DNA of 63,485 bases, counting the filler, from Kipferlia bialata (taxonomy: Eukaryota), in assembly GCA_003568945.1 (NCBI GenBank). It is 7 parts of 7 records of this genome, joined end to end, with 100 filler letters (N's around TTAATTAATTAA, not from the genome) between each part and the next. Parts side by side here need not be neighbours in the genome. Positions count along the whole stretch, not along the records: positions 60,697 to 63,485 come from BDIP01001125.1; 6 more parts are not named here. The stretch is one strand, 5' to 3'. The position numbers were made by a program, and so were the translations under genes. The first letter of the stretch is position 1. Every line of letters begins with the position of its first letter. The notes beneath the pieces are model-generated. The model was given only the letters and a program-made list of their open reading frames with translations, was not told the origin of the DNA and made no database searches. Positions 9,220-63,450 of this stretch are shown here, piece after piece.

Positions 9220-12200
9220 ATGGAGGGGGTCTATTGCTTGGCAGTACCCATCATCATGCTGTTAGAGAAGCAGCAGAGAGACACTGTGTCTGCAGAACAT
9301 TTTGATTCCGATTCGGAATCAAAATGGTTGATGAGCATCATGTTTGATATTCTCAGATGCTCACCCACCTCTCTTCAAGCCTTCCTCTGGGCTGTATGTA
9401 TAGTTCACTACTTGGCGCTCACAGAGAATACATCTAGAGACACGAAGTATTCACAGAGCCTGTTCGTGTCCGGGTTGTTGCAGGTGAGTATATTATTATA
9501 CTACAACTGAGATATGTGTTGTTGATCATTCTGCCCTGACAGTATTTAGTGTCACTCAGGCTTCTCACTTTTATGACTCAAGCAGGTAGTGTGTTTCTGC
9601 TTACCTCTCTTGACTCCATTAACGCTCTCTAAGGGATGTGGAGTCCCTTCCCAATTGATACACTTATTGGTCCATACACATACACTGTTTGGTGCATATA
9701 ACTCTCTATTGCTTGTGTGTTGCTTCAAGTCATATATGTTGCCATTGTTCTAATATCAGGTGAAACCAGGGTAGCTCTGACATGGCTCCTGATGCAGATG
9801 TGCTTCCAGTGCTTGGATCCGATACAAGTAGTCAACAGGTTTGTGTTGCTGTGCCAATATAGAGTGGTGTATGTTGTGGAGTCACATATATATGTGCATT
9901 TGGATGTGTATATGTGTTAGTTGTGCTTGTGAGTAGCAGTACATGAATTCTTACTATTCTTACTATTCTTACCCCAGAAAGACTCTGCTATTGGCCACTT
10001 GACGATATGCCGGGAGAGACCTGACCTCCGTGACCCCCTAATCCGCTACATGGGCTCAGAGATCGCTAGGCTATGCACTGAGGTGGAGAGAGTGACCCTT
10101 CTTGACAGTGGCAAGTTCCAGGTTGTCCATGGAGATGTGCTTCCCCTACTGCCTGCTTCTACTGATACTTCTCCTTGCTGTGTGCCCTTCGTCCTCAGTG
10201 ATGTGGGACCATTCTCAGATGCCAAGCTGGTACTGGGTGATAGTCAGCTCAGGGCCCTCTTTGCACGCAGTGTGCGTGGGCTATATACCTTGCACAGGTC
10301 TGGTATTGTGCACAATGACATCCACCGCGGCAATATCATTGTGGTGCCCGATGAGACGGGATCTGCCTTCTTCCCAGTCTTCCTCGACTTTGAGGCCGCC
10401 TACATTGTACCCGGTCACTCCCTTTTAGAGGGGGCCAAACATGCCCTGCTGAGGGATATGTGTATAGATATGGAGTGTGAGGGTGACCCATTCAGCTGCG
10501 GTACCCTGCCTGAGCTGAGTGAGGCAACCTCTCAGTTCTATGGGGTGCTCACATACGCATCCCGAGACACTCACGCTGGGGTCAGAGACAGCATCCTCAA
10601 GGACCTGGAGGCTCTTGTCTACTCATTTGCCGTTGCAGCTGGGGCCAGGCTCCCTTGGGTTAAGGAGTGTGACTGTTCTGACCCAGACTACATGAGTGTA
10701 TACCAGATGAAGCTCTCTCTTGCTGCAGACGTTGTGAGGGGTATCGCCCCCGAGGGTTGGCCAGAGTGGCTGGTGGCTACCTACAGTGCCATGCTTTACT
10801 GCTCTGTGCCACTCGAGGGTACATTCCCTCTTGTAGACGGTGCTGAAATGACCCCTGAGGCCAAGATTGGGCACCTAGCCGATATGCAGTACGAGATTAT
10901 ATTGGAGTCTCTTGTGGAGGCAGATGGTGACGCAGTTGTCGTACCGCGTCTCTGCCCTCTGGTTTCTGGACCCAGCATAGAGACGGAGAGGTTGAAGCAG
11001 CCCCATCTGAGTATTGAACCTAGGTCTGTCACTGGTGAAGAAGAGGTCGTGGTTACTCTTGCCAGTAGTACTAGGGTGAGGGATGGAGATATGTCCGGCG
11101 TACCAGTGACGCGCCCTGCCACCACACCCACCTCTCTTGAGAGGCTCACGTCAATGATATGTGCCCAGTGCTTCAGCAGAGAGGAGGATCGTGCTTCAAG
11201 CGTTGCCTGCTCTAGACTGTCGGGGCATTCCCCTCTGTCCTACTTCCCCGGCCAGAGTCTCACCCTGTCCAACTGGTTTGTTCCTCACCAGACTAACACT
11301 GATGGCTGGATAGCTTCCGATACGGTGGCATTCAGGCCATGGGTGACAGTGCCCAATGCTAGTATCGCTGCAGCGGTATCCTTGGAGGCTCTTGGGGAGG
11401 ACGGTGATTATAGGGCCATGTCGCCCTACATAGAGCTTCCCAGTGTGACATACGATATGGATTCCATAGCAGTGGCGTGTCATGCAGACTCTATGGGGAG
11501 ACACACCTCCCTTTCTCAGCATCTTCTCATCGAGACAGTTGCTGTGCCATGCAATGATCGCCGACAAGTGCGTGCCCACCTGCGTTCTGTCGAGCAAAGA
11601 CTCTCTCTATCCAGAGAGAGGTACTGTTTCCGCATGGGAGAGGTGGAGAGGGTATCCGAGCCTGGGATGCAGATACTGAAGTATCTTCCGCTGAGTGCTG
11701 TCCTAAAGACAACGGCTGTGGTGGTGCTGGTAGGGTCTAGAACAGCAGTGGAAGCAGCCCGTAGACACTTGAGTGACGACCTCCACAACATATCTCAGCC
11801 TGGTCTGACAGAGTTAGCCTATCTTGGCCGTCTCTATGTGATGCACCTCGATATGAGCTCTCAGTGCATCGAGGAGACACCAGCATGCACACTGACCCTT
11901 ATGACAGAGTGTCTGGTACAGTCTCTGAGGTACATGCACGACACCCACCCACACTGCCGACTCCTGGGGTCTAATGAGTGGTACATCCAACAGAGTGAGG
12001 ATGGGACTGAGGAGGTGCTCCACATTACCCCAGGGTACATCACACTTGATGCTGAAGTGATGGACATCACTCTCAACACCATCAGTGACTGGGTCACCGC
12101 TCTTTCCCGGAGATTCGGTAGGGAGTCTATCCCCGTAAACGCACATGTGCGCCGTCTTAGGTGTGACTGGGATCTGATGAGGGATTATGGACCCTTTGGA

Positions 12201-12296
12201 CCCTCAGTGCCCCGTGCAGAGAGGGAGCAGAACCTTGACAAGGCCATGGCACTGCTACAGAGAGCCATCGATGGTTTGACTCAAGCTATACTCTAA
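9220..12296 (+). CDS. Atypical Ser/Thr protein kinase, CK1-like C-lobe, with a long unknown C-terminal region; final exon 9978-12296
   Basis: LYTLHRSGIVHNDIHRGNII (catalytic loop), FLDFEAA (DFG equivalent), GVLTYASRDTHAG...KDLEALVYSF...LPW (CK1-type GT.RYAS...DDLESLGY...LPW). Acceptor cttaccccag at 9977. The 5' exons from 9220 are uncertain. Confidence 0.75.
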
Positions 12297-12522: not shown

Positions 12523-12622
12523 NNNNNNNNNNNNNNNNNNNNNNNNNNNNNNNNNNNNNNNNNNNNTTAATTAATTAANNNNNNNNNNNNNNNNNNNNNN
12601 NNNNNNNNNNNNNNNNNNNNNN
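12523..12622. other. Artificial contig spacer
   Basis: 44 N + TTAATTAATTAA (stops in all six frames) + 44 N. Confidence 0.99.
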
Positions 12623-12715: not shown

Positions 12716-15700
12716 GTCCTGATGATGGCTGGCCTTGAGAACAAGCCCGTTGTGTTCCTGTTCAGCGACACCCAGCTGGTGATGCCCTCCATGCTTGAGG
12801 ACATATCAACCATTCTGAACACAGGTCAGTTATATATATATACACATGGATATATATATGGATGGATCACATATATGTGATTCAGCTGGTCATGCCATCG
12901 ATGCTCGAGGACATATCAACCATTTTGAACACCGGTTAGTTAGTAGAGCTAGGCATCTCTGTCTCTCTATGTTTCTTCTCTCTCTTTCTCCCTCCCTCCC
13001 TCTGTCTCTCTCTCTCTCTACACCCTTAATCACAGGTGATATCCCCAACCTCTATGCCTCTGAGGAGCTTGACCAGATTTACACTGCCATGAGAGGTGTC
13101 TGTCAGGAGAAGGGTCTAGCAACAAACAAGATGGTCAGGTATAACGGTCTTTGTGCTAAGTGTTCTATTGCATTGACATGTTAAGGTTAATCTAACCACG
13201 TAGGTTCCAGCAGTACCTGCTCCGTATCTCCCAGAACCTGCACGTGGTGCTGGCCATGTCCCCCATGGGAGGTAGGATTGTATATTAATGAGATATATAT
13301 ATATATATACTCCCATCTGAGACATGTATGTAGTCATTCCGTTTTCTATATATGTGTGTGTGAGTTTATGTGTCTTGCCCTCACCCTCAGGTGCCTTCAG
13401 GGAGAGACTGAGGCTGTTCCCCTCCCTTGTCAACTGCTGCACACTCATCTGGTTCACAGCTTGGTCCAGGTATATATATGTATATATATATATATATATA
13501 TCATGTGAAAATACCCGGCACCTATAGAAGGCCCTCTTCTCTCTACCCCCCACCCCCCACCTTCTCTCTATATATATGTATGTATACCCTCACCCCCCAG
13601 GGAGGCTCTCTTCACCGTTGCCATGGAGGCCCTCCTTGACACCGATCTGCCCAATGTCAAGAAGGACAGCCCAGAGCACAGGGCCATCTGCGAGCAGGTA
13701 ATTACATGTGTATATACAGTGTATTAATATATACTATACAATGTATGTGTATATGTCAAGAAGGACAGTCCAGAGCACAGGGCCATCTGTGAGTTGGTAC
13801 TCTTGATTGCACTCATACGACTCTCGTATGCACTGTTCTCACCCCCAGGTTGCCGAGATGTGCGTGTACCTCCACCAGTCCGTGGAGAAGATGAGCGAGA
13901 AGTTCCAGGTACAAGGGTCTTATCCCTCTCTCTCTCTCTCTGTCTGTTTCTCTTGCTAGCCCCTTTAACAACAGGATGAGCTGCAGCGCTCCAACCACGT
14001 CACCCCCACCTCCTACCTCGAGCTCATCAATGCCTTCAAGAAGCTGCTGGTGAGTATCAGATAGATGCTACACTAAAACTAAGTGTTCATGTACTCTCTT
14101 CTCCTCTGTTCTTCACCTTCTTTTCATCCCTGCTACCCCCTTATTCTAGGCCAAGCAGCAGCTGAGCGTAGTTACCAACAAGAGGAGGTTCCAAGTGGGT
14201 CTCGAGAAGCTGGTGTCAACAGCTGTCATGGTACGCAAGTATCTCTCTCTCTCTCCCTCTACCCCCCTTTTCTCACCCTAGGTCGAGGAGATGGGCGTGG
14301 CTCTGGTCGAGCTGAAGCCTCACCTGATCGAGACATCCAAGCAGGTGGGTGGCAACTATATATACAATTTCATATGTTCAATTTCACTAGGATTATATTC
14401 TCTTACATCCCTCTTCCTACACCCTTTACTCACCCCCAGGTTGAGGAGTCCATGGTGCAGATTGCAGCAGACACCAAGGTGAGTGTAGATAGAGTCAGAA
14501 TCGAGATGGAGTGTTGTATGTCATTCATACACATATCTTCTATGTTTACAAATACCTAGGACGCCGATGCCACCCGTGCCATAGTTCTCTCTCTCTCTTT
14601 CTCTCGATATTATATTTGTATACACACATATAAAGTAGACTGATACCTAGGACGCCGATGCCACCCGTGCCATCGTTGAGGTCGAGGAGGCAGCAGCATC
14701 AACCAAGGCACAGGAGTGCCAGGCAATTGCAGGTATCGACATCAACTATACATATATGTATATGTCGGTAAATTCATAACGCTACTATGGTTAAAGTGTC
14801 AACCAAGGCCCAGGAGTGCCAGGCAATTGCAGGTACAGTGATAAATACACATATATAATAATAGTAGTGTATTGTATTTTGTTCTCACCCTCCAGAGGAT
14901 GCCGAGCGTGACCTTGCCGAGGCCCTCCCCGCCCTTGCCTCAGCTGTGGCATCACTCAAGCAGCTCAATGTGACAGATCTGACTGAGATGGCTAGGTAAT
15001 TGTTGTATTCATATACACACATCTATGTCAATATAGAGGGAGAGAGAGTAGCTCAATGTGACAGCTCTGACTGAGATGGCTAGGTATATATTGATGTGCA
15101 TATATATATAGAGTGAGAGAGAGACCTCACAGAGATGGCTACTTCTGTGGTGCATGACTTACCCGCAGGTACATCTCCCCTCCCCTTGCTGTCAAGCAGG
15201 TCCTGGAGGCTGTGTGCGTCATGTTCCAGGTATGGGATAAGTATATATCCAAGTACCTATTAGACTGAAGCTATATATATACATTCTCTTCAACTAGTAT
15301 CTCACTATCATTGTTTGTCTCATGTTCCAGGTATGGGAAAAGTGTTGGAGATAATGTAGTTATATGTATCTTAGTGTACATGTATACATACAACCCCTCT
15401 TACCTGTAGATCAAGGCCAAGCGTGTCGAGGATAAGGACAGGCCTGGCAAGCACGTCGAGGACTACTGGGAGCCAGCCAGGAAGATGCTCGGTACGTTAT
15501 TGCTCTCTCTCTCTATAAATACATATATATGTGTATGTATATATATATGCATACCTTACCCCAGGCGACCCCCGTGGTCTCCTTAACAACCTGTTCAAGT
15601 ATGACAAGGACCACATCAAGGAGTCAATCATCACAAAGGTACGAGGCCCCACTGTATATCTAAATATCTATGCATTTATACTGATCCAATAGCAATACTT

Positions 15701-15860
15701 CTAACTCCCCAGATCCAGAAGTACATCAACGACCCCGAGTTCAAGCCCGAGATCATTGCCAAGAAGAGTGTGGCTGCCACCTCACTCTGTATGTGGGTAC
15801 GTGCATGTGTATCTCTATTTTCATTTGAATATATATGTACCTTTGAACCAAAGTCAGTGT

Positions 15861-15909
<49 letters not shown>

Positions 15910-18900
15910 GCCAGGTCCGTGCCATGAACCTCTACCACCACGTGGCCAAGAACGTGGAGCCTAAGAGACAGAAGTACGTAGTTTTACTATAATCTCCATC
16001 TCCCTATTTCTCTTATAGTTGTATGTGTAGATATATGTATATATACAATACTCAACCCAGGCTTGCTGCTGCCCAGGCCGAGCTTGCTGAGACCAAGGCA
16101 TCTCTCGATGAGAGCCAGGCACGTTACACTCCTCTCTCTTTCTCTCTCTCTCTCTCTTATGTTCCACCCTTATCTTGACTTACACCAGGCCCAGCTTAAG
16201 GAGGTCGAGGACAAGATTGCCACCCTGCAGGCTGGGTTTGAGGAGCAGACCCAGAAGAAGCAGGATCTGGCCACCCAGGTATGTGTACATACTCACATTA
16301 GATATTGATACACCCAGATTATCAGATTATATATACGTACTGACGTTTAGATTAATATTGATAAACACATCATTATGTCTGCGTCTCTCTTTCATCACTC
16401 ACCATCCAGGTTGCAGATACCGAGACCAGGCTGGACAGGGCCAACAGGTAATATACATTTCGTATTTATGTGCACATTCATTATATATAGAGTATATATA
16501 TAGAGTACTATAGTATTTGTATCCGTACCTTCTAGTGTGTAATAAATATATAATAATATACATCTAACCCCCTAGGCTGATGGGCGCCCTTGGCTCTGAG
16601 CGCACCAGGTGGGAGGAGTCTGTGGCCAGGCTGATAGAGGAGGAGAAGAACCTGGTCGGAGACATTGTCTTTGCAACAGGTGAGAATATAGGAGTCTGAT
16701 TGGATAGATTGCTTCTCCTCCTTATATGTGTCTCTCTCTCTTTCTCCTTCTACACCCTTTTACCCCAGGTGCCATTGCCTACCAGGGTGCCTTCACCGCC
16801 GACTACCGCACTGCCCTGAACACCATGTGGCAGGAGAAGCTTGGGGAGATTGGCCTGCCCCACTCCATCTACGAGGGGGGACTCAGTGTCAACAAGTGAG
16901 TGGATATAGTGTGGTATATATGATATATATACATGTGTATATACTCATCTCAGGATCCTTGCCGACCCTGTGCAGGAGAGAGAGTGGATCCTGAACGGTC
17001 TGCCCTCTGACAACCACTCTATTGAGAACGGAGTGTTCCTCCAGAACTCATCAAGATGGCCACTCATGATTGATCCTCAGGTACTTTTGATAGTATTGTT
17101 ACTGATGTTGCGCTCACATAGCGCTGCATGTATCCACATATAGCGCTATGTCTCTCTCACCCCAGGGCCAGGCCAACAAGTGGGTCAAGCACACGGAGAG
17201 AGAGAACAACCTCGATGTGGTCAAGCTGACTGATGATGACTTCCTCAGGACACTCGAGAACGATATCAGGTATAGCTATATATATATATGTGTATAAGTA
17301 TTACATAGCATGTGTATTATACATCCATTGTATTCTATTGACACTAGGTTCGGTAAGCCCGTCCTGATTGAGAATGTGCAGACCGAGCTGGACCCTGCCC
17401 TGGAGCCCATCCTGCTCAAGCAGACATTCAAGCAGGTGCTCTCTCTCTCTCTCTCTCTCTCTCCCCCTCTACACCCTTTATTCACTGCAGGGTGCCTCTG
17501 TTGTCATCAGACTCGGAGACCAGGTCATCCCCTACAACTCCAGCTTCAGGCTGTACCTCACCACCAAGCTGCCCAACCCGTCCTACAGCCCAGAGACTGC
17601 AGTCAAGGTATTCTATGGTGTACTCTCATACACTCTATCTTGATCCCCTTGTCCCTTCTCACTGTCAGGTGCAGCTTCTGAACTTTGCCATCACCCCTGG
17701 TGGACTGGAGGACCAGCTGCTGGGTATGTATACTATAAGTGTCCGATACTAACTAAATCTCACAATCTCTTTTGTATGTAGTCTATATCCCACCCCCAGG
17801 CATTGTTGTGCAGAAGGAGAGGCCTGATCTGGAGGCCCAGAAGAACGAGATTGTGCAGAACAACGCTAGGATGAAGGTGTGTATATCACAACTCTCTCTC
17901 TCTCTCTCTCTCTCGTACTCTAGTCCCTTATTGTCAGGCCGAGCTGAAGGCTGTTGAGGACAAGATCCTGCAGCTGCTGTCCGAGTCTGAGGGAGACATC
18001 CTGGCCGATGAGACCCTCATCGACACACTCTCACAGTCCAAGACAACCAGTACAGACATTACAGCAGAGGGTATGTGTATATATATATATATACCGCCCC
18101 ATTACTTGCCTTCACTCTTTCTCCCTAACTATATGCAGATATATATATAAACGCATTTATGGCTCGCTCACCCCCAGTGGCCAAGGCCGAGGAGACTGAG
18201 AAGATGATCGATGTCACCAGATCAGGGTACAAGCCAGGTACGACTTTCTCTCTCTCTCTCTTCCTATCCACACAATATTGATTGTTGCCTTGTCCATGTC
18301 TCCTGTGGCAGTCTCTCCCTCCCCTCGATCTCCCCCTCTATCCCTCTTATCCCCAGTTGCCGTCCGTGCCTCATGTCTGTTCTTTGTTCTCAACGACATG
18401 CAGCTTGTGGACCCAATGTACCAGTACTCCCTGCAGTGGTTCATATCACTCTTCGGCCAGGTATCTTGCAGTATCTATTGTTTAGTTACACTTTCTTGTG
18501 ATGTCTTACTTATCCCAGTCCATATCCGATGCGCCAGAGTCCACCAAGCTGTCCGAGAGACTATACAACCTCAACGACTTCTTCACATACAACCTCTACA
18601 CCACCGTGTGCAGGTATGTAAAACATACATATATATATATTGTAAAGGAATTTTTGATCGACCTTGTTGATTTGTGTCTGTTCTGATGTCCAGGTCTCTG
18701 TTTGAGCAGCACAAGCTCCTCTTTGCTCTGCTCCTGGCACTCAGGATCAGACAGAGGGCAGGTATGACATATGTTGATGTCAATGTATATATGTATTTAT
18801 ATTAATTTATGTTCTTGTACTCTACTTACCCTCCCTTACCTCTCCAGGCAACCTCGACGCTGCTCTGTACAGGTTCCTCCTGGTGGGATCCACATCCTCG

Positions 18901-20652
18901 TCGCCCAGGTACATATACTGCATGTACTTAGTTCACTATACATCTTTCATAGTTATTGGCATGTGGTTATGTGTCATTGTAAATACAATTCTATGTGTTG
19001 CCGTCTCACTCCAGACTTCCCAAGCCAGCCACCGCCGCTGGATGGCTGTCTGACAAGATGTGGCTCGACATCAACGACCTGGACCAGCTAGGTATCTTTC
19101 TCTATGCTCACTCTCTCTCTCTCTCCCTCTCTATAACCCCAGGTGCCTTCAGAGGCATAGCCGCTTCCTTTGACTCTGTGGAGGGACTCACCATCTGGAG
19201 GTCATACTTTGACAGCAACGACCCGCACCTGCACGCTCTGCCAGAGGTATGTATTCTCTCTCTCTCTATGAATACATGTTCTTACAATGACCCATATGTA
19301 CTCTGTATATCCCTATATGTGCTCCGTATGTGTCTATATCTCACCCCCAGCCCTTCGAGTCCAGCCTCGACTCCTTCCAGAGGCTGCTGCCACTCAGGTG
19401 AGGAGATAGCATGTATCTCTCTCGTTCTCTCTCTCTATTTATGTATGTATATGTGCGTGTGTGTGTGTACACATATACTCCTCACCCCCAGGTGCCTCAG
19501 ACCAGACAAGGTTGAGGACTACGTCATAGTTCTCTCTCTCTATGTCTTTCTCTCTATATATATATAGATGTGTGTGTGTGTACTTATGGATATTGTTCAC
19601 CCCAGGTGTCTGAGGCCCGACAAGGTCGAGGACTACGTCATTGAGTTTGTCACCAAGGACCTCGACGCACGTTTCGTTGAGCCACCCACATTCGATATGG
19701 CACTCTCCTACCGGTACGGTCTATCTCTCTCTATATTTCAATATCTCAATTTCCCCCAGTGACTCTAACTTTCTCTGTTAGTTATAGTTTGCATATCTGA
19801 CTTCCAGCGACTCTAACAACGTCACCCCTCTTGTGTTCGTCCTTAGCTCCGGTGCCGATCCAGCATCTGCCCTTGTGAAGTTCGCCCAGGTACATACTGC
19901 ATACATATTCTTTCGTGTAGAATCGTTATCGCGAAACTTAACCTTCAGGACAGCAGAATGGGCTCCAAGCTGTTCTCCATCTCTCTTGGACAGGGACAGG
20001 GAGGCCCTGCCACCAAGATGATCCAGGTACTGCCGCCTGTCTCTCTCTCTCTCTTCAATGACGCGTACTGGACTGCATACATTTCATGTATATGCAAATA
20101 TTACTATTATTATTATTATGTATATCTTACCCCTTAGGACGGTGCTGAGCACGGACACTGGGTGCTGCTCCAGAACTGTCACCTGGCTCTGTCCTGGATG
20201 TCAGGTACAGTCTCTCCCTCCCCCCACCCCTTCGACCCCTCACTATCCCATGCTACAACCCTATTTACACATTATGCCATTATATATTCATACTCACCCC
20301 TAGAGTTGGAGCGCCTGGTTGAGAACCTCCAGGGTGACCCATCCTCGGTGCACAGGGACTTCAGGTACTGTAGTATATATATGTATATTAGTACATATTC
20401 ACAAGCACTTCAGATACTATTACTCTCGCTTTCCTCTCTCCACTTGTGTACATATTGTTCCCACCCCCCAGGCTGTGGCTCACCTCGATGCCCTCCCCCA
20501 AGTTCCCAGTCTCAGTCCTCCAGGTACTATCTCTCTCTATCTCTCTATATCTGTATGTATATTAGTAGTTCTTGCGGTCCTATACATACCCATCCTAACC
20601 CCCTAGAACAGTGTCAAGATGACCAACCCTCTCTCTCTCTCTCTCTCTCTCT

Positions 20653-20692
<40 letters not shown>

Positions 20693-22678
20693 TCTAACCC
20701 CCTAGAACAGTGTCAAGATGACCAACGAGCCCCCCCGTGGACTCAGGGCCAACCTCATCAGAAGCTACAAGGTACAGCGATGTATATGTGTGTGTATATG
20801 TGTGGCTATATGATCTATTCTCTCTCTGCTATGCTCATCAGGAGCTACAAGGTATAGTGTCTCTATGACATACTATCCTCACTCCCTCTCTCTCTCTCCT
20901 GTTCTCACCCCTAGGGTTACGATGACCGGTTCCTCGACGAGACATGTGTCAAGCAGGTGGGATTTGTGTATACGATTGTATTGTGTGTCCTATATTCATA
21001 TATTACCAGCATTCTTTTTATTTCTCTCTTTATCTCTTCCCCTTCCCCCCTTCTCACTGTCAGACGGAGTACAAGAAGATCCTCTACGGTCTGTCTGTGT
21101 TCCATGCCATTGTGGTCGAGAGAAAGAGATACGGTGCACTGGGTACGGTGTAATGTTACTTCTCTGTCTTATTATGTCTGGTAATACTTCTTCTAATCTC
21201 TAACCTCAGGTTTCAACATCCCCTACGAGTTCACCACCGGTGACCTTGACGTTTGCATCAGGTATATATATATACACATTTGTTAATATTGTCTTTGGGA
21301 GGGTAGTGTCGCATAGATCAATGGTTTCATCAGCCTCTCATTAACCTCTCATTTTCTCTGCTCTTTTGTCATTAACGTCTCCTTAACCCCCCAGACAGCT
21401 CACCCTCCTGTTGGAGAAGTACGAGGAGATTCCATTCTCCGTCATCAGGTTCCTCGTAGGTAGGGGGAAAGGGTCCAGTAATTCAAAAGAGAATGGTGTA
21501 CTATTCTCTGTTGACATAGCATCGTGTGAATAGTATCTTTGATTATTCCAATGCCAGGCCAGATCAACTACTAATCTTATGATTCATCTATTCTGATATA
21601 AATGTATATATATATATATATGTAAATCACCATTCTAACGATCCAGGCCAGATCAACTACGGAGGCAGGGTGACCGATGACCACGACAGAGTGACCCTGC
21701 TCACCATCATCGATGACTATGTCAACGATGGGTGTCTGGAGGAGGGGTACTCCTTCACACCGGACAAGAGCATCCAGCAGCTGCCTGCCAACGACCAGAG
21801 GTATATACATCTATATCAATTGTTTACTATACATCTAACCCCCCCAGGTCCTACCTTGAGACCATCAAGCAGATGCCCATAAATATACTAGTTGTGTATG
21901 TATAATAATTAATACATATTTACATTTAATAGTCTAACCCCAGGTCCTACCTGGAGACCATCAAGCAGATGCCCATAAATATACTAGTTGTATATTATAT
22001 ATATATATATATACATCTAATAGTCTAACCGTCCAGGTCCTACCTTGAGACCATCAAGCAGATGCCCATGACACCCTCCCCAGAGGCATTTGGGTTCCAC
22101 CCCAACGCTGCCATTTCATCCAGGTATAGTGTATATATATACATACTTGAGTGTGCATATAGAGTATGTATACTCTGACTCCTAGGAATGCCGAGACCAC
22201 CCATGGTGTATATAGTATAGTGTATGTATACATCATACACATATTCAATATTGTATATAGTGTATATATACATCCTCTGACTCCTAGGAATGCCGAGACC
22301 ACCCAGCTCTCTCTCTCTCTCTCTCTCTCTCTCCCCCCCCCAGTAGTACAGTATGTATAGTACACATATTCATTGTCTATATACTCTAACCCCTAGGAAT
22401 GCAGAGACCACCCAGCTCTTCTCCATCCTGCTGTCCCTCCAGCCCAGACAGAGCTCTGGCGGTGGTATCTCAAGGTTAGTATGTCGGGCTCCTCTCTTTC
22501 TCTCTCTCTCTCCATATATAGGTATTGCCTTACCTTAGGGAGGACACCATCATGCAGACTGCCGAGTCTCTACTGGAGTCCCTACCTGAGCAGTACGACA
22601 TCCAGACAATCGAGGGGCAGTACCCCACAAAGTGAGTGGTACTATTGTTCTCTCTATTTCCCTCTCTATATATACATA

Positions 22679-22726
<48 letters not shown>

Positions 22727-24266
22727 TTAGCTACAAGGAGTCCATGAACACTGTGCTTGTGCAGGAGTGCATCAGATACAACAAGCTCCTCTCCGTCATC
22801 AGGGCCTCCTTGATCAACATCATCAAGGCCGTCAAGGGTATCGTCATCATGAGTGCTGAGCTCGAGCAGGTATGATAAGCATGTGTACTAATAGTCTATT
22901 ATTATGAATGCGTATATATACAGTGTTGAGGTGCAGTGATGTAGATTTTGGGCAGAAATTGTGGAGACTGTTTCTTGTACCCCACCCTTCCAACCCCTAG
23001 GTGTCTGACGCTCTGTTCAACAACACTGTGCCTGGTCTGTGGGCCAAGAGTGCATACCCATCCCTCAAGAGCCTGTCTACATGGTACGGCTAGTATATAC
23101 ATTCACCACTATTGTATATATATGTTTGCAACTATAGTATATACTCTAACCCTAGGTTCGTTGACCTCCGTGCCCGTTGTGACTTCATCACCCAGTGGGT
23201 CAGGGACGGACCCCCCAAGGTCTTCTGGATCAGCGGACTCTTCTTCCCACAGGTACATAGTCTCTCTCTCTCTACACTGTGTATTATGCCCCTTCCCTAC
23301 TCTCTCTCTCCCTTACTAACACCAGGCCTTCCTCACCGGTACCCTCCAGAACTTCGCCAGACGCCATGTCGTGCCCATCGACACAGTCTCCTTCTCCTTC
23401 CATGTATGTGGTTATGATGCTTATGATTCTTATGTTTCTATGTATGTGGTTTCTATAGCTCTCTAGATTCTTCAGTTCCAAGTTTTTAACTAAATTTACT
23501 TCAGGTCCTTGATGAGCAGTGTCTAGGTCCTAGTATAACTTCATTTATTACTATTGAGTTTCATAATATATTGACTTCAGGTCCTTGACGAGCATGGTCT
23601 AGAGGGAGAGCCAGATGCGGCACCTGTCGATGGATGCTATGTCAGGGGACTGTACATCGAGGGGTGCAGATGGGACTGGGACCACCACGTGCTGGCAGAC
23701 AGTAGACCTAAGGTATGTATACTATCGTATCTCTTCTGGTTTAACAACTCCTTGTGGACTACTTTAGTGTGTGTAATTGTATTACTGGTCATCCACACTA
23801 TATTCTCTCACTCTCTCTTTCTACGAATTCAATCCCTAACCATCAGGAGCTCTACACGGCCATGCCCATCATCCACCTGCTGCCAGAGGCCAACCACAAG
23901 CCACAGGTACCATTCTACACAAACAGTAAATTACTATATACATTACATGAATTATATAGGAATCCCTCTCCAGTGTGTTTGCATACTCTTACTCACCTCT
24001 CAGCCTGGCACCTACAGTTGCCCTGTGTACAGAACCCTGACCAGAGCCGGTACCCTATCCACAACAGGTTAGTGCATATGTATACATACAAAGATACTGC
24101 AAGTAACAGTCGCAACCTCATGAGTTTACGGTAGAATTATGATTTCTGCTCCCTCTCACCTCCAGGTCACTCCACCAACTTCATGCTCATGATCGACATT
24201 CCCTCCAGCCGCAAGCAGGCTGTGTGGGTCAAGTCGGGTGTGGCCATGTTCGCAGCACTCTCCTAA
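12716..24266 (+). CDS. DNAH1: Axonemal inner-arm dynein heavy chain, DNAH1-like: AAA4, stalk/MTBD, AAA5, AAA6 and C-terminus (5' partial, about 60 exons)
   Basis: Spliced peptides [134 protein letters not shown] and [24 protein letters not shown]...[11 protein letters not shown](24264-24266). The dynein call is secure; the DNAH1 subtype is from recalled similarity. Confidence 0.95.
21835..22425 (+). repeat. Two triplicated acceptor + exon-start units inside dynein introns
   Basis: cag|gtcctacct(t/g)gagaccatcaagcagatgccc occurs three times (about 21846, 21942, 22036). ctag|gaatgc(c/a)gagaccaccca occurs three times (about 22183, 22285, 22393). Confidence 0.95.
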
Positions 24267-25131: not shown

Positions 25132-25231
25132 NNNNNNNNNNNNNNNNNNNNNNNNNNNNNNNNNNNNNNNNNNNNTTAATTAATTAANNNNNNNNNNNNN
25201 NNNNNNNNNNNNNNNNNNNNNNNNNNNNNNN
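25132..25231. other. Artificial contig spacer
   Basis: N run + TTAATTAATTAA + N run. Confidence 0.99.
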
Positions 25232-32304: not shown

Positions 32305-32404
32305 NNNNNNNNNNNNNNNNNNNNNNNNNNNNNNNNNNNNNNNNNNNNTTAATTAATTAANNNNNNNNNNNNNNNNNNNNNNNNNNNNNNNNNNNNNNNN
32401 NNNN
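32305..32404. other. Artificial contig spacer
   Basis: N run + TTAATTAATTAA + N run. Confidence 0.99.
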
Positions 32405-32651: not shown

Positions 32652-35600
32652 GTCCAGAAGGCCATCTGGGCACTGGACGATGACCAGATGTACGAGGTGT
32701 GTATATAGTATACATAGTAATTGCTTCACTATATATATAGGGAGAGAGAGAGAGGTGCCAGATGTACGAGGTAGGAGATATAGTCATATTGTAGTTTATG
32801 TAGTAGTAGTATCATTATGTATATATAGAAGTGATAGTTGTATGGGTACTGGACGATGACCACATGTATATGGTAGATAGGTGTATATGTATGCATAGAT
32901 ATAGTAGCAAGTTAAGGGTGATACACGGACACACTGGCATATGCACTGGATGCGTCCTCCAAAACCCAACCATATTCTTCCGTTTGCGGCCTCTGGGTTC
33001 TCTATCTGGTTTCCCTTACTCCTTTTCTGTCCTATGATCGCAGAGGCTTCACACTAGTACTGTGTGAATACTCTCTATTAGCCACTCTTATCCTTAGGGC
33101 AAGAAGACTCTGTCTCGGGATTACATCCCCGGAATCTATTGTTCTCCTTAATTAATCATTATCATCTCTTACAACCTTAGCCTTAGGGCATCCTATGTCA
33201 TCCTATCATTCTTTATCATCTAGTTGTAGCGACCTTAAGATAAGGCTTAACCTTAGGGCAAGAAGACCCTGCGTGGCATTGTGGCCAGCCAGGCCATTGC
33301 AAGACATGAGGTGGGACTGTATAGATAACATATATCCCAATATGTATGTTTACTGTCAGGTAAACCAAAGGCATTATTCGTGATGTATTCTATTTCTGGT
33401 GCACTCTCTGTGTACTTCAACCCGAGTGTTCGTCTGATGTGATGGAGTATCCATGACCTGGCGAATACATCTGACCCCAGGGCCTGTGTCTGTACACCCA
33501 CCTCCCCTACCTCACCCACTCCTGTGTACCAGCAGTTAAGGTAAAGGCTATACAGACACATACGTATATATACATATATGTTATATATATATATATACTC
33601 ACATCCCATACCTCACCCACTCCTGTGTACCAGCAATTATGGTATGGGCATATACATTCACATGTATATACCTATATACACACAGACATATATATATAGG
33701 GTATGGACACATAGACTCGCATGCCTCTCTGCATATACTCTTCTACTCCCCGCAGTCAAGGTATGGGTCCTGTTTATGTACTGTGTTGTGGAACAGGCAT
33801 CTCTCTGTCTCTCTCTGTGTATCTTTCTTTATATAATGACCTACTTACTAACTCCAGTCACTCTGGAACATTGGTGAAGGCCTACCCAGTGAGAGGAGGA
33901 GTGGCAAGAACGCACCGACATCCAGAGTGACAGCTGCCAGAGACGTCAAGGTATGTATATATATACATATATATACGTATATGTATATATACACACGTGC
34001 AAAGATGTATGTAGTGTATTTGTTGGTAGGATCACTGTCTATCTTTGTGTATATACATGCAGAGTGGCAGCTGCCAGAGACGTCAAGGTATACATATATA
34101 TATATACATAAATATGTATGTGTATATACCTTAGTACACGAGTGTTGTTCACACCCAGGCCGGTGAGCCCCTGACCAGGACATACCTGATAGGGGCACCC
34201 TCCATGACAAGGGCAGAGAGGTATATATATATATATATATAGTATAGACAGAGCATAGGTATATAGTTCTATAGATATATAGTTATTGTGGAGATTGGTA
34301 TGTCTTGTCTATATACCTGATAGGGGCACCCTCCATGACAAGGGCAGAGAGGTATATGGTTTACATACCCTTAACACATCGACACACATATGTGTATACT
34401 CTGCGCATATATATATCAATATATATCTATATATATCCATATATATATATCTGACCCCATAGTACCGAGTACCTGTACCGACCCATATTTATATATATAT
34501 ATATTTATATCTATCTGTCTATCTGTATGTATCTAACCCTATAGGACCGAGTACCTGTGGGAACACTACGAGTTCAAGTGCAACTGTGAGGTATGTGTAC
34601 GGCAATTATACATATATATATACATATATATATGTATACCCTATTCCAGTGCAACTGGGAGGTGTGGTCAGCATTTAGTATTAGCCTCTTACAGGCGCTC
34701 TCAAATACATGTTACATTATTTGTTACATTATATGTAATGTGTAATCTTATGTGATGATTAATATGCTACTGTTGGTATGGTGTTACCCTAAATGATACA
34801 AATTGTCACTGTGTAACCGTAGGTGTGCTCCCTAGAGGGTGATGCCCTGGTCCAGAGTGACATGAACAGGATGAGGCTCAGGGTGCTGAGGGAGGAGCTG
34901 AGGGTGAGACGATATACCATATTTGTACACTATGTATTCTTATACAGTGTATAATATACTGCTGAGGGAGGAGCTGAGGGTGAGATGATACACTATATCA
35001 TTATACATCATTCATAGATAGACCATGCGAGTGAGGAACTGAGGGTGAGATGATACACTCTATATATACACTCTGTATTCACACTCAATTTACCCGTGTA
35101 CCCTGTCAGAGACTAGCTACGGGTGAGATTGTATACTATTACTATTCTACCTGTTATGCCGTATACTCACGCTATCAGGACATAGCCTCAGAGAGGATAC
35201 TATATTATATTAGTCTCTGTCACACCATATATACATATATATATACTAAATATATATCACTCACTATGTACTATATATATATATACATATATATATACAC
35301 TCACTGTCAGGACATAGCCTCAGAGAGGCCAGGGCCTCCAGAGTGCCTATCACTGGCACTGGAGGTATGACTATTGGATCTTATACACTTATTATCAGTG
35401 CCTCGTATGTATCTTCAGATATGTGTATATCTATCTATCTGTCTATATCTATCTATACATATACTGACCTCAGGCCATTGGCATCTGTGTCACAGAGTAC
35501 AGGGCAGACCCAGCATACATGATCAGGTGGATAGAAGCGATGAATACATATATGTGTAAATGCATCAGTTGCTACACTACTGTCGTGGATGGGACTCATT

Positions 35601-37744
35601 GTATCCCATCTTCTTTCTATTATGTGTGCAATATATACTGGCCAACCCCAGAGCCTTTTGCATGTGTATGTGACTATGCATGGACACAACTCTTATTCCC
35701 ATCCATATCTCCCATATTGTCTCTCTGTGTACGAATACCAACCCCAGGGCCTTTTCCTCTGATGCTTCTCTCCCTCTGCCTATATATTTGTATGTAGATC
35801 AAAAGTGTGTTGACACGTACTAGCAAAGTGTAGTCTAGTATGTTAACACCAGAGCCTTCTCGTCTGGCTTCGAGGCTGCCTGCGTGGTTGGGGACGGGGA
35901 GTTGGCCAGAAAGATGATGTACAACATACTGGCCTCGCAGGTACATATCACTAGAGTCATATATATATTATAGGATAGTTTTTAGTGGCATAATATATGT
36001 GGTATGTACAGGAAGATGATGTACAACATACTGGCGTCACAGGTACCCAGCAACACAGTTATGTAACATTGTATTACAAATGAAATGTATTCAGAATGAT
36101 ACTGTACAACTATATGTATCCACACTATAACAATGGTAGTTGACCAGGAAAGTGATGTACAATATGCTGACATCACAGGTTTATATACACTGTATCCAGT
36201 TATAAGATACCATAATCTACATGTTTTTGTATGGAAGTCTATAGTCTCCTGACCCCTAGATGCACACCGAGGGAGGTGGACTGCCACAGCACAAGACGAT
36301 GAAGGACTGGTGCATAAACCCAAGGTAATGTCGCAGTATAATTAGATAACTATATATATACTAATATATATACGAATTCATATATATACATCAATACTTC
36401 GATATATATGCGAGGCCCATGGACTCCCTGGTTTTTGAACGCAAGGTCAGTGTGGTGACTATATAGCGACAAATACCAAGGTAGTGTCTTTTGGTCTATG
36501 CCTTGTCTCACCCCAGCATCCACCCATCCACCCATGTTGCATCCTGTCCCATGAATATGTATGTATATATATATACTATACGTATATATATGTTCAGTTC
36601 CCTGCCTCACCCCCAGCATCCACCCTGTGGCCAGGGCGTTCGGAGTGGTGGTGGAGGCCAAGGTACTATATAATATATGCTATATATACTATATGCTATA
36701 TACTATATAATATATACTATACTGTATCTACTGCACTGTATTTCTGTGGTGGTGGAGGCCAAGGTACACAGTATATATTATATATTATACAATATACAAT
36801 ATGCTATATACAATATACGATATAATATATACTATACTGTATGTACTGCACTGTATGTCTGTGGTGGTGGAGGCCAAGGTACTATATACAATAGACTATA
36901 TACTATGTAGTATATAGTATATAGTATATAGTATATATAGTATATATAGTGTATACATAATATATAATTGGTGGAGGCCAAGGTGCAGTGTATTAGCTCT
37001 CCAAGAACTAATCTTCTATTTGATACTGGCAGACTGCCATTTCTTCTCGGTACTGCTTGCCATGTCCATAGAATCACTTTCATCCTTGTACTTATCCCCA
37101 TCCCCTGCTGCCTGTTATGGCCATCAGTGCGTGATAGTAATAATATGGAGATACTCTGTACATATATACCACTGTCTATATATCAAGTTCTCGTACCTCT
37201 GATAACCCCTAGCCCCTGCTGCCCGTCATGGCCTCTGTGCGTGATGGTGAGTGGGCATCGGTGGCCGAGGAGGTGGGACTTCCCATCATTTGGGGGGACA
37301 GGTACGAAGTAGATACTTATATAGAGCTAGAGTTAGAGCTATATTGCACACAATGGATTGTCTCGAAGAGGTACAGATCACTTAGAGTATTCCTTTAACT
37401 AGGTTTTTTACGTCTTTGTTGGGAATCTACGCTATATTTTTATACTGATCCGCAGGAGTGTTCTCAAGGAGCACGAGAGGGACAGGAGGGAGAGAGTGAG
37501 GCTGGAGGAAGAGGCCAGGAAGGCAGAGGCAGCAGCCAAGAACAAGGTGCCATAGTCACATTACATTCAATACTTTTATCGTATAAGTACTATGTATGTA
37601 TATAGCGTATACCTTAGTGGAAGATGGAACGTATGTAGAGGCTATTGTATTTCATTTACACCCTAGGAGAAGATGCTGGAAAAGAGGCGGAGGAAGCTGC
37701 AGAAGAGGAAGAACAACGCCAAGAGGAGGACAGCCAAGCAGTGA
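32652..37744 (+). CDS. SET-domain protein, SMYD/SET5-like, with post-SET cysteines and a basic coiled C-terminus (5' partial)
   Basis: GLCLYTHLPYLTHSCVPAVK / RVTAARDVK|AGEPLTRTYLIGAPSMTRAER|TEYLWEHYEFKCNCE|VCSLEGDALVQSDMNRMRL matches NHSC.PN, A.RDI..GEELT.SY and F.C.C..C. Ends KRRTAKQ-TGA at 37742-37744. Confidence 0.85.
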
Positions 37745-44898: not shown

Positions 44899-44998
44899 NN
44901 NNNNNNNNNNNNNNNNNNNNNNNNNNNNNNNNNNNNNNNNNNTTAATTAATTAANNNNNNNNNNNNNNNNNNNNNNNNNNNNNNNNNNNNNNNNNNNN
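44899..44998. other. Artificial contig spacer
   Basis: N run + TTAATTAATTAA + N run. Confidence 0.99.
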
Positions 44999-57488: not shown

Positions 57489-57588
57489 NNNNNNNNNNNN
57501 NNNNNNNNNNNNNNNNNNNNNNNNNNNNNNNNTTAATTAATTAANNNNNNNNNNNNNNNNNNNNNNNNNNNNNNNNNNNNNNNNNNNN
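57489..57588. other. Artificial contig spacer
   Basis: N run + TTAATTAATTAA + N run. Confidence 0.99.
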
Positions 57589-57897: not shown

Positions 57898-59398
57898 ATG
57901 TACATGCTACGGCAGGAACCCGACTTGGTTCCATACACCTTGGTGGAACTGGGTAGAGTGGCTGGTGTCGCTACTAACCTAGGCAGGCCAGGAGAGACTG
58001 TCATCTACAGAGAGAGGGAGGGGGACCCAACAGCAGATGAGGAGGAGAGGGAGAGAGAGAGAGAGGAGGAGAGAGAGCGTGTCAGGGACTATAACCACTG
58101 CATCACAGTCAGTGATGAGCCTTGCCCCAGGTTTGTACATATGTAATGACAGTCTCTCTCACACGCACTCGCTCTCTTTGTCTAATATCCCTCTGAGTCA
58201 CGTACCTGTCTGTGCTGTAACCCCCCCCCCCCCACACACACACACCTTTGTGAATGGATACCTAGACCTGGCCTGTATCAACACTCTGTCTCTCTCTCCC
58301 TCTACTTCTGCCTGTGTGGGTGTCCAGTTTGTATATAGGATCAGTTTACTATTCCAGCTGCAGTTTACCCTGAGATTCACCCTTCTCTTACCCTCTCCCT
58401 CTCCCCCCCCTCTCCCCTACAGCTATTCATTCACCCCACTCCATCTCTCTCTGTAAACCTTCGGCCTATACATCTTTCTGTTCAACCAGAGAATCCCCCC
58501 CCCCCCTCTCTATATATATGTATACAACATGAAACACTAACCATTCCCTTACTCTTAGACCAGCTTTAGTAGACATGGAGGTCTGTCTCTTCCCCCCCCC
58601 CCCCCCTCTCCTCTGTATATATTGTGTGTACTAGAGCTGGAGCTTTTACAATTAACGTTGACACCCAACATTTCACTTTCTTCAATTCTCTGTCTCTCTC
58701 AATATATGTTACATAAAACACTATTGTCTCACTCCTAGACCAGCTACTGTTGATCTTGACATCCGTCTCTTTACTCACACTCCCTCAGACGGAGAGGGAG
58801 AGAGAGAGGAAGAGAGAGTGCTAGTGCCTATTGAGTTCAAAGCAGGTACTATTATATATGTATTACAAAAGAGTCAATAAGGCAGCTGTCTCTTCCACAC
58901 TACCTCTCTCTCTCTGTTAGTCTCTCACCCTCTAGACAGGGACACCCTCTCCCTGGATGGCATCAGTGTGACACAGACATACACTCTCTATACTTCACAT
59001 ATACCCTCTCTCTCTTTCATAGTCTTATCCATAGACAGGAACACCCTCTCCCTGGATGGCATCAGTGTCACACATATACACTCTCTTCTTCACATATACC
59101 CCCCTCTCTNNNNNNNNNNNNNNNNNNNNNNNNNNNNNNNNNNNNNNCATATACCCCCCTCTCTTTCATAGTCTTATCCCTAGACAGGGACACCCTCTCC
59201 CTGGATGGCATCAGTGTGTGTATGTACATCCACTCTCTTATTCACTCATACCCTCTCTCTCTTTCATAGTCTTATCCCTAGACAGGGACACCCTCTCCCT
59301 CGATGGCATCAGACTCAACCACGGGATGGCACTGCCTATCCTGGACGCAGGTAGATATGCACATACACATACTATTATATATGCATAGGAATTATGTT

Positions 59399-60596: not shown

Positions 60597-60696
60597 NNNN
60601 NNNNNNNNNNNNNNNNNNNNNNNNNNNNNNNNNNNNNNNNTTAATTAATTAANNNNNNNNNNNNNNNNNNNNNNNNNNNNNNNNNNNNNNNNNNNN
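60597..60696. other. Artificial contig spacer
   Basis: N run + TTAATTAATTAA + N run. Confidence 0.99.
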
Positions 60697-60710
60697 GAGA
60701 GAGGGAGGGA

Positions 60711-62844
60711 GAGAGAGCAGTGTCCATGTCCTCAGAGACCTGGGGGTGAGGTATGGAATAGACTTATATAGAGAGAAAATACAAAATAGCAATATACTAC
60801 AGACCTCGGCCACAACAACCTCCTCCTGATCCTCCTCCCTCTCTCTCTCTCTCTTTCTCTATACACATATATATATGTGTATATACGTATACCTGACTTC
60901 ATACCTTCTCCTCCTGAGCAATATGCTCCTGCTGCCTCTCTCTTTCTCTCTCTCTGTATACACAAAATAGTATATATATGCATACCTCCTCCTCCTGAGC
61001 ATTCTGCTCCTCCTGCTGCCTCAGAAGCTCCACCTCCTAACAGTGAGAACAATGAGAACAATAGACTTCCATTGACTGAAATTTAGATTCAAATACTATT
61101 GCTATATTGATATTGACCCAAATATCTATATACATTCATATGAAGAATGAAATAATTAGTACATGTATATGTGCTCTGTACCTCAGGTGGGATTGTGTCA
61201 GGGGCAGTCTCATCCTGGGGTGAAATATATATATATACGAACCATAATTTATATCTATATATATACATACATATAAATGATGAATATTATAAGTGTCTGG
61301 GGCAGTCTCATCCTGGTGTGAAAGGGTGTAGGGAGGGACATAATATACACCTGAGATAGTCCCATGACAATACAGGAAACAATATTGAATAATAATTGGT
61401 GGTTCTATCGCAATTTGAACATATGTGTAATGCATTAGTAAAACGGTAATTGTGTACATAATAGTACCTCAGTCTCGATTGGCAGTGCCTCTCCCTCCTC
61501 CTCCTTGGGGACATCAGCAGCCTCCCTAGAGTGAGTGTGGCATGCCACACACAATTCAGAGTGTATGCCAAAGCCATGTCACGCACAATTGAGAGAGTAT
61601 TTGTATGGATGTGTACCTGGGGTAGTGCATGAGCAGGTTGGTCACGATGGCAGAGGAGAGTCCGAAGAGCTCGGAGAGGACAGACACGGAGAGAGAGCCG
61701 TTGGGGCCGCCGCCTACAGTAAGACATGACAAATACAGGGAGGGGAGACAGAGAGAGAGAGAGAGAGAGTACCTAGCATGGGGTGGTCTGGGTCGAACTC
61801 CTCGGCCTCTCTCTCCTTGTCTCCCTCTCCCTCTGCTGCGGCTAGGGCATCCTGGGAGCGGCGGTGCTTGCTGGGATGAGCCATACTACAATACACATAC
61901 ATATACATATACACAAGACAGATACAATATCCTCTCGTCCTGGGAGCGGCGGTGCTTGCTGGAATAAGCAAGGGATACCCACACAGGGAAATAATATATA
62001 CACACACATATACATACCCTTAGTTATGCGAACCCACAATATCCAAAGAGTAATACTACAATCATCAAGAATATTTGTATACCTCAGCACCAGCCCCCTG
62101 GCCATCCTGAACAGTTGGGCACTAATATGTAACCATATAATAATATATATGTAGGTATAATTGTATATCTATATTAGTATACAATTGTATACCTGAGCAC
62201 CAGCCCCCTGCCCATCCTGAAGAGGTGTGCACTAATATATATATACATACACATATACATATACAGATATCTATCTATATATACATATATATATATATAT
62301 ATATACCTTAGGACTAATCCCCTGGCCATCCTGAAGAGCTGTGCACTAATATACATAACCATATATATACAGATGTCTATCAATATATACATATATATAT
62401 ATATATATACCTTAGAACTAATCCCCTGGCCATCCTGAACAGCTGGGCACTACAATCTATAACCATATATATACACACACATATATTAATATATATATTC
62501 ATATATTTACAGAATTACACACCTGAGCACCAGCCCCCTGGCCATCCTGAACAGCTGTGCACTGCAGGCCTGGCCACTCCTGGAGATGGGGTAGTCGCGC
62601 TGGGGTGAGATAGAGAGTATATATATGTAACTACAATATGTACTATACATATAGAAGCGGGCATAGTGGCAGGGAGCCGAGTTTACGCAAGCACATGTAC
62701 TTGTATATACCTTGTGTAGGTTGAGGAATGGTGACACTGGGCACAGGGCACACATATAGATATAATAATACTATAAAACTACTAATACATATATATCATA
62801 TGTATACACTATATATATATATATATATATACACCTTGTGTAGC

Positions 62845-62890
<46 letters not shown>

Positions 62891-63450
62891 GTGTAGGTCC
62901 AGGAATGGTGACACTGGGCACAGGGCACACAGGTGGGCACGCTCAAAGGCTCCAATGGGGTCATCACCTGCACAGGTTAGAAGACGAATACACACATATA
63001 TACATACACTAATATACATGTATATATATATACACTAATATACATGTATATATATATACATGATATCAGCAAGGCTCCAATGGGGTCATCACCTGCACAC
63101 ATTAGAAGACGAATGCATACATATATAAATATATACTAATATACATGTATATATACTAGGAAGGCCCCAATGAGGTCATCACCTGCACAGGTTAGAATAT
63201 GTGTGGCTGTTACGATATATATACATACATATACTCGAACACACACATTCTCTCACATTCTCTCTCTTTCTCTTTCTCTGTCTCTTTACATATCACCACC
63301 GATCCTACATATGTGCACCACCTCTGGGTACTGAGCCACCCTCCCCCCCCCCTCTCTCTCTATATATAAATACACTTTGAATCATATAGGCATATATATA
63401 TACCACCAATCCTACATATGTGCACCACCTCTGGGTACTGAGCCACCCTC
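60711..63450 (-). CDS. Internal exons of a hypothetical protein (both ends partial)
   Basis: GDDPIGAFERAHLCALCPVSPFLDLHK|RDYPISRSGQACSAQLFRMARGLVLR| and further GT-AG-bounded exons. Confidence 0.55.
62081..62563 (-). repeat. Five tandem copies (period about 110 bp) of the SAQLFRMARGLVLR exon end plus GT donor
   Basis: Donors on the minus strand at 62081, 62191, 62305, 62409 and 62521. Confidence 0.95.

Follow-up and report, generated by a model that had tools for sequence, protein, structure and literature searches.

Duplicated coding pieces that lie in an intron, diverge in a protein-preserving way, carry both splice sites and are present in mRNA characterize cassette micro-exons and tandem mutually exclusive exons. 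A different kind of duplicate has been described in amphioxus as 'mirages', in Adh3, the globins BflGb6 and BflGb9, troponin C and PGBD5; according to the accessible portions of these reports, mirages are tandem duplications across an exon-intron boundary, 5' or 3', with units of 10-160 bp, and splicing is normal even though splice signals are often retained (PMC3087553, PMC3902484). In the same portions, the BflGb6 units are given as 81-100% identical and evolving in concert. Mirages are also marked by a copy number that varies among haplotypes or cells. The mechanism is called unclear in PMC3087553, the accessible text of which also cites the Rogers model of intron gain by tandem duplication of AG/GT, and we found no silent/replacement analysis of mirages in the accessible text of PMC3087553 or PMC3902484. 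In mouse meiosis, the accessible part of one study reports inter-homologue break joining and tandem duplications at double cuts (10.1101/2020.06.23.168138). Within the literature we covered, which leaves most subscription papers and supplements outside, we found neither the structures described below reported for Kipferlia nor any mention of mirages with a silent excess; a word search of the accessible text of the Kipferlia genome paper (PMC5874029) returned no 'duplicat', 'heterozyg', 'ploid' or 'polymorphi', and the accessible text of PMC6679479 held nothing on half-exon echoes.

We analyzed a window of 63,485 nucleotides from Kipferlia bialata that is made up of seven separate contigs, so that adjoining genes of the window are not genuine neighbours. 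The contigs are joined by six linkers (12523-12622, 25132-25231, 32305-32404, 44899-44998, 57489-57588 and 60597-60696), which are identical to one another, N-flanked and closed by stops in every frame. A single plain gap lies at 59110-59147. Eleven gene models, curated by hand from a self-trained first pass, contain 173 introns, all GT/GC-AG, and no internal stops; one of the 11, the focal gene, has RNA support, and the dynein model has Pfam support. One dynein intron, 16119-16188 (+), is GC-AG and is required for the open frame. The product of the focal gene is the hypothetical protein KIPB_004994 of Kipferlia bialata (P0003; 100% identity over a 41-residue reference), whose sequence equals our hand-built exon model except at the ends. 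No Pfam family was found for P0003, a homologue search returned the protein itself alone among 313 similar-length candidates and nothing among 3293 longer ones, and in metagenome contigs we obtained 0 matches to a degenerate motif of the focal copy and 127 pattern matches for P0003, of which 0 were confirmed and none was a relative.

To survey the window, each of the 173 introns was scanned, blind to frame, with its flanking exons, and foreign introns gave the expectation. This census returned 84 exon-edge echoes in 54 introns, where 0.2 were expected; 80 of these, lying within 13 nt of an exon edge, were kept, and four interior 12-13-mers were left out. Like the amphioxus mirages, the echoes lie next to exon-intron boundaries on either side (46 exon-end and 38 exon-start echoes), have units of similar size (50-177 nt, median 102, quartiles 90-114) and retain splice signals, the GT being intact in 43 of 45 end echoes and the AG in 31 of 35 start echoes. 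They differ from the mirages, which are known from a few loci of an animal, in occupying nearly a third of the introns modelled here in a metamonad protist. They also differ from the BflGb6 units in that identity on the exon side is about 97% for replacement sites and about 80% for silent sites, with an intron side that is mostly unalignable. The intron-like part of the unit measures at least 38 nt in end echoes and at least 54 nt in start echoes, and the clustering of units near 100 nt may reflect either repair, which would fix the size, or splicing, which would act as a filter. An echo is carried by 50 of the 60 introns of at least 150 nt, and TA runs occur in 40 of the 54 echo introns, which are longer, and in 31 of the 119 others. 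The dynein gene, the most tightly constrained of the test cases, has 14 echoes in 12 of its 59 introns, and a gene at 32652-37744 (+) has 16 echoes in 8 of 14. We observed no echo of a whole exon, the largest covering 0.81 of its exon, and both splice sites were present in just eight of the 80 (6/45 end and 2/35 start echoes). The echoes thus resemble cassette micro-exons and mutually exclusive exons in being intronic coding duplicates; unlike tandem mutually exclusive exons, they are not whole-exon duplicates with both sites.

The focal case is an array that runs from a working exon into a 652-nt intron; the original prediction had described five recoded copies of an exon end and proposed possible hidden cassette exons. 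Sequence comparison confirmed five 41-nt minus-strand copies, each starting with AG and followed by GT, which differ from one another at 3-9 positions per pair and are separated by GT..AG spacers of 65-75 nt. Copy 1 is the end of the working exon. The listed codon changes were borne out, in that copies 2, 3 and 5 differ from copy 1 by synonymous changes only (6, 6 and 3 differences) and replacements are confined to copy 4, and a frame-preserving 39-nt unit does lie between the AG and GT of copies 2-5. The predicted peptide, ending in LR, required correction: the final AG is a split codon that the C of the next exon completes to Ser, giving SAQLFRMARGLVL-S, a reading frame confirmed by a spliced RNA contig and by P0003. 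Synonymous changes make up 10 of the 12 distinct array changes relative to copy 1, where the same substitution spectrum predicts 3.8 (P=0.00045; this value and the p-values below are optimistic, as neighbouring changes, for example those in GGA TTA GTY CTA, may be one event and not independent). The focal array is not exceptional, as echoes of this kind occur across the window.

Splice matrices trained on 166 modelled introns gave the donors of copies 2-5 normal to strong scores (5.6-7.2). The usual branch motif is missing ahead of these copies, as had been noted, and their acceptors scored -0.9, -0.5, 0.5 and 1.8, values undercut by 0, 0, 1 and 2 of the 166 modelled acceptors, respectively. 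Copies 2 and 3 differ from each other at 3 silent and 0 replacement sites, and the spacers that follow them are near-identical (60 matches, 3 mismatches); the other spacers are not. Five different left halves and four different right halves occur among the copies, almost no decay is seen in copies 2, 3 and 5, and the four-gamete test is violated at 12 pairs of sites. This pattern suggests that the copies are mosaics of several versions, or that they carry repeated changes. The claim that more than two haplotypes contributed is upheld in an evolutionary sense by these 12 conflicts; as a mixture in the sequenced sample it is not, since the flanking exons are covered by one contig with no alternative letters, and hence no second allele, in the DNA and RNA contigs of the one sample examined.

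These contigs form two sets from a single sample, X1 (DNA) and X2 (RNA), which we aligned to 60700-62456; X2 was treated as RNA on the strength of its contig, from which five GT-AG introns have been spliced out. This contig (X2 record 8; 2396 nt, depth 574) leads from the downstream exon to a single 38-nt copy, in which two letters differ, and then to 30 letters identical to the window beyond 62563. Over those 38 positions copy 1 differs from copy 5 at 2 positions, and copies 2-4 at 5, 7 and 4, so the two differences in the contig fit copy 1 alone and the main mRNA contains only that copy. As the alignment stops at 62456, we infer copy 1 in the RNA from the contig letters and its loose end, and the removal of the intron from a joint at 61873 together with the match of that loose end beyond 62563. 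Within the aligned stretch the contig skips all seven census echoes, as amphioxus mirages are skipped in normal splicing and as cassette or mutually exclusive exons are not; this describes the main form, since contigs drop rare isoforms. With copy 1 alone in the spliced contig, one SAQLFRMARGLVL copy in P0003, and the acceptors of copies 2-5 among the weakest, the proposal of hidden 39-nt cassette exons is not supported: the frame-preserving length is there, and an acceptor with a branch site and inclusion in the main RNA contig are not (rare forms being dropped from contigs).

Among the DNA contigs, X1 record 3 connects the downstream exon with copy 5 and with the greater part of copy 4; it covers 62023-62229 without a difference and crosses the upstream junction of copy 5 at a depth of 413, compared with 426 in the flanking contig. 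Neither set has a contig over copies 2-3, which counts neither for nor against them. At that junction intron-like bases stand directly before mid-exon bases, an arrangement absent from any plain haplotype. X1 may be the assembly's own source, so its agreement is a check on the assembler and not a second sample.

Features of the focal gene and of the dynein gene, in window coordinates.
Feature	Position	Strand	Evidence or remarks
Dynein heavy chain gene, 3' part, 60 modelled exons	12716..24266	+	Open frame; Pfam AAA_lid_11 and Dynein_C
Exon-end echo, focal gene	60908..60935	-	Census; skipped in RNA contig (joint 60737-60984)
Exon-start echo, focal gene	61293..61312	-	Census; skipped in RNA contig (joint 61213-61467)
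Next working exon	61773..61870	-	RNA contig; P0003
652-nt intron with four exon-end echoes and one exon-start echo	61871..62522	-	Removed in RNA contig X2 record 8
Exon-start echo of next exon, with its own AG	61938..61958	-	Census; skipped in RNA contig
Five array copies	62563-62523, 62451-62411, 62347-62307, 62233-62193, 62123-62083	-	Sequence comparison
Echo copy 2	62411..62451	-	6 silent, 0 replacements; GT retained; no usable acceptor
Echo copy 3	62307..62347	-	6 silent, 0 replacements
Echo copy 4	62193..62233	-	1 silent, 2 replacements (Q>H, A>G)
Echo copy 5	62083..62123	-	3 silent, 0 replacements
Working exon (RDYPISRSGQACSAQLFRMARGLVL), with copy 1 (62563-62523) as its final 41 nt	62523..62599	-	Strong acceptor and donor; RNA contig runs into exon; in P0003
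44-nt exon-end echo, previous intron of focal gene	62711..62754	-	Census

The focal gene also holds echoes outside the census, with exon-start echoes at 63182 and 63092 (-), a 10-nt exon-end echo at 62844-62835 (-) and, at about 63305-63450 (-), a repeated upstream exon end.

The divergence of echoes from their exons is strongly silent across the window (pS 0.181, pN 0.025; pN/pS 0.13-0.14). In the 80 edge echoes 79 of 122 distinct changes are silent, compared with 33.3 +/- 4.6 (maximum 49 in 5000 draws) in a null that places changes according to the same spectrum, under which neutral decay gives about 27% silent changes. If an echo decays freely while its exon drifts at silent sites for equally long, the silent share is bounded at 43% or less at any age, and the observed count exceeds this bound (p about 1e-6). 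When 17 of the 80 echoes were extended to the splice site, 103 of 156 changes were silent (p 2e-6 against a trinucleotide-matched bound of 47%). The excess recurs in subsets of the data: 29 of 39 distinct changes in exon-start echoes, 18 of 21 in the dynein gene, 69 silent to 35 replacement at single-echo loci, and the focal array itself (p 0.015 against the 43% bound). Where a change is common to every echo of its array, it is silent in 10 cases and a replacement in 1. Outside the focal gene, 14 of 26 changes that vary among the echoes of one array are silent, little over the 43% bound, and the gene at 32652-37744 has no excess (11 silent to 16 replacement). A mirage-type structure was already known; its density in a protist and a silent excess beyond what one protected copy allows appear new, judged by the literature we covered.

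Among the 46 echoes of at least 25 nt, silent and replacement rates do not correlate (rho -0.07), which is not what ageing would give. Of the 30 intron bases adjoining each echo, about 90% are identical in 3 of 77 cases, and in 47 of 77 the match is no better than that of random introns. As the splice dinucleotide and exon piece are preserved and the intron side is not, the exon piece, unlike its intron neighbour, has been under selection at the protein level in the past; judged by the main RNA contig, it is untranslated now. The silent changes run nearly symmetrically in direction (codon preference 45:34, GC 38:23), so one-way decay towards AT does not account for them. Other comparisons within the census did not support the allelic reading set out below: the dynein gene is not significantly more silent than other genes (19:5 versus 84:48, Fisher p 0.17), replacements are no more conservative than random by BLOSUM and are not clearly shifted along the echo towards the junction (p 0.14), and intron-side identity does not follow pS.

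That copies 2-5 are silent mirages is highly probable. As to their origin, we lean, with modest confidence, towards the reading that they are half-exon duplicates which recombination out of register either copied from divergent working alleles of the gene or overwrote with the sequence of such alleles. In such a process, a break in a TA-rich intron would be repaired from the homologous chromosome; one end would copy the other allele's intron, overshoot by about 13-60 nt into the adjoining exon and rejoin without register, or, in place of the overshoot, two offset breaks on homologues would be joined. The outcome would be a duplication of about 100 nt with its two copies from different alleles, and which end invades would decide between an exon-end and an exon-start echo. 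Unequal exchange could then multiply the unit, which would explain the single junction common to copies 2-5, and parts of copies could be refreshed, and so turned into mosaics, when they mispair with the ends of working exons in other alleles. Half exons alone would persist, because a piece with one splice site would be ignored by splicing. The differences that we count would then be mostly old allelic differences already filtered by selection on the protein, plus about 3% of later decay. This process would require outcrossing, or a hybrid past, and a silent diversity of roughly 0.15-0.2, which is very high, among the highest known for eukaryotes. Weighing against this reading are that high diversity, the single contig with no donor allele over the flanking exons, the uneven excess among genes, the unsupportive comparisons listed above and the RNA support for just one of the 11 gene models.

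In a toy Wright-Fisher simulation (200 individuals, 2 runs per setting), four settings with allelic donors at theta 0.2-0.3 gave pN/pS of 0.14-0.26, against the 0.13-0.14 observed; allelic donors at theta 0.05 gave 0.32-0.49, and six clonal settings, with lethal swaps and in one case own-exon conversion, gave 0.43-0.87. According to the accessible text of PMC8516963, metamonads have no NHEJ, have kept meiotic genes and are thought to depend on homologous recombination; no sexual or parasexual process has been seen directly in Metamonada (PMC8516963). The accessible part of the mouse study offers a likeness in that tandem duplications arise when breaks on different chromatids are offset, ends of homologues can be joined, and synthesis aborted during gap repair takes up polymorphisms of the other haplotype; it differs in concerning germ cells mostly without ATM and kilobase hotspot pairs, with inter-homologue joins shown for deletions (10.1101/2020.06.23.168138), whereas in Kipferlia a unit measures about 100 nt and the process is deduced from its products only.

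The simplest model is that slippage on the same chromosome duplicates an exon edge, after which the echo decays everywhere and the working exon drifts at silent sites only. The structure agrees with amphioxus mirages, the changes common to whole arrays are silent in the proportion expected of exon-side changes, and the gene at 32652-37744 fits. We nonetheless regard this model as unlikely, because it caps the silent share at 43-47% where 65-66% is observed, with the dynein gene and the focal array well beyond the cap, because it predicts intron sides about 94% identical when 3 of 77 approach that value, and because clonal simulations never fell under a pN/pS of 0.43. Selection on the echoes themselves in a clonal lineage, acting when a deletion between copies brings an echo into the working position or when an undescribed RNA event employs one, frequently enough for replacements to be purged, could account for the retained splice dinucleotides and for the silent-only divergence of copies 2 and 3, whose following spacers differ at 3 of 63 aligned bases. 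It appears rather improbable to us: clonal simulations with lethal swaps still stayed at 0.43-0.87, the echo starts have no common splice dinucleotide able to excise the working half, and the RNA contig carries the letters of copy 1.

Instead of alleles of one population, the donors could have been diverged copies, either subgenomes or paralogues, that a hybrid or polyploid ancestor carried and that have since been lost. An equal silent excess and intron sides that fail to align would be predicted, and the sampled strain does show one haplotype. The five left and four right halves, with little decay in copies 2, 3 and 5, call for more than two donors in a short time, and no paralogous contig matched at 85% likeness, so we consider this origin quite improbable. 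An assembly artefact, in which haplotypes of a mixed culture are joined in tandem at microsatellites, would produce the allele-like, silent-only differences, and the contigs are short and end in repeats; furthermore, no X1 contig lies over copies 2-3, and the assembly may itself derive from X1. Against this, X1 record 3 crosses the copy 5 junction and most of copy 4 at even depth and X1 contains 0.91 of the sampled words of 60700-63440, which makes an artefact very unlikely. The reading that we rate lowest, as highly unlikely, is that copies 2-5 are frame-preserving 39-nt cassette micro-exons used in variable number. Their AG...GT flanks, length, strong donors and protein-preserving changes are what such exons would have, but one copy is seen in the main RNA contig and in P0003, their acceptors lie at the bottom of the 166, and both splice sites are rare among echoes in general. 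The silent excess is moreover independent of cassette potential, being the same in exon-start echoes, which are mostly donor-less, and echo lengths have no preference for multiples of three (32, 22 and 26 for remainders 0, 1 and 2).

Extending the allelic-capture reading to the genome, we put forward as a tentative possibility, somewhat short of probable, that Kipferlia introns are an archive of alleles, in which tens of thousands of half-exon echoes (an extrapolation from the 54 of 173 introns) would derive from working genes of other individuals through aborted inter-homologue recombination, would record cryptic sex and a silent diversity near 0.2, and would be the main builder of long introns. 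If the echoes are captured alleles, one assembly would hold a countable genome-wide record of recombination between divergent individuals, and population diversity could be estimated without population sampling. Mirages would gain a testable mechanism, and the echoes would be a possible footprint of hidden sex in a metamonad. The result is relevant to how introns evolve in the one fornicate that is rich in them, where most of the modelled introns of at least 150 nt carry an echo. As an ab initio gene finder mistakes echoes for exons, which we saw in first-pass models, annotation of Kipferlia bialata needs RNA support.

Echo density may vary along the genome: in the first contig (1-12522, three modelled genes) 1 of 23 introns has an echo, compared with 53 of 150 elsewhere. 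Intron 2421-2579 (+) starts with an exact 18-nt copy (GT...) of the start of the next exon and looks as if it was born by tandem duplication, as in the Rogers model; this is one case in 173, and unlike the model, the other echoes lengthen existing introns and create none. The same contig holds a stretch of 771 codons without an intron at 9978-12293 (+), with a weak protein kinase match (E 0.0006, under the curated cut-off), and, at 339-648, a 108-nt coding repeat in about three copies within a long minus-strand frame, which is an ordinary protein repeat.
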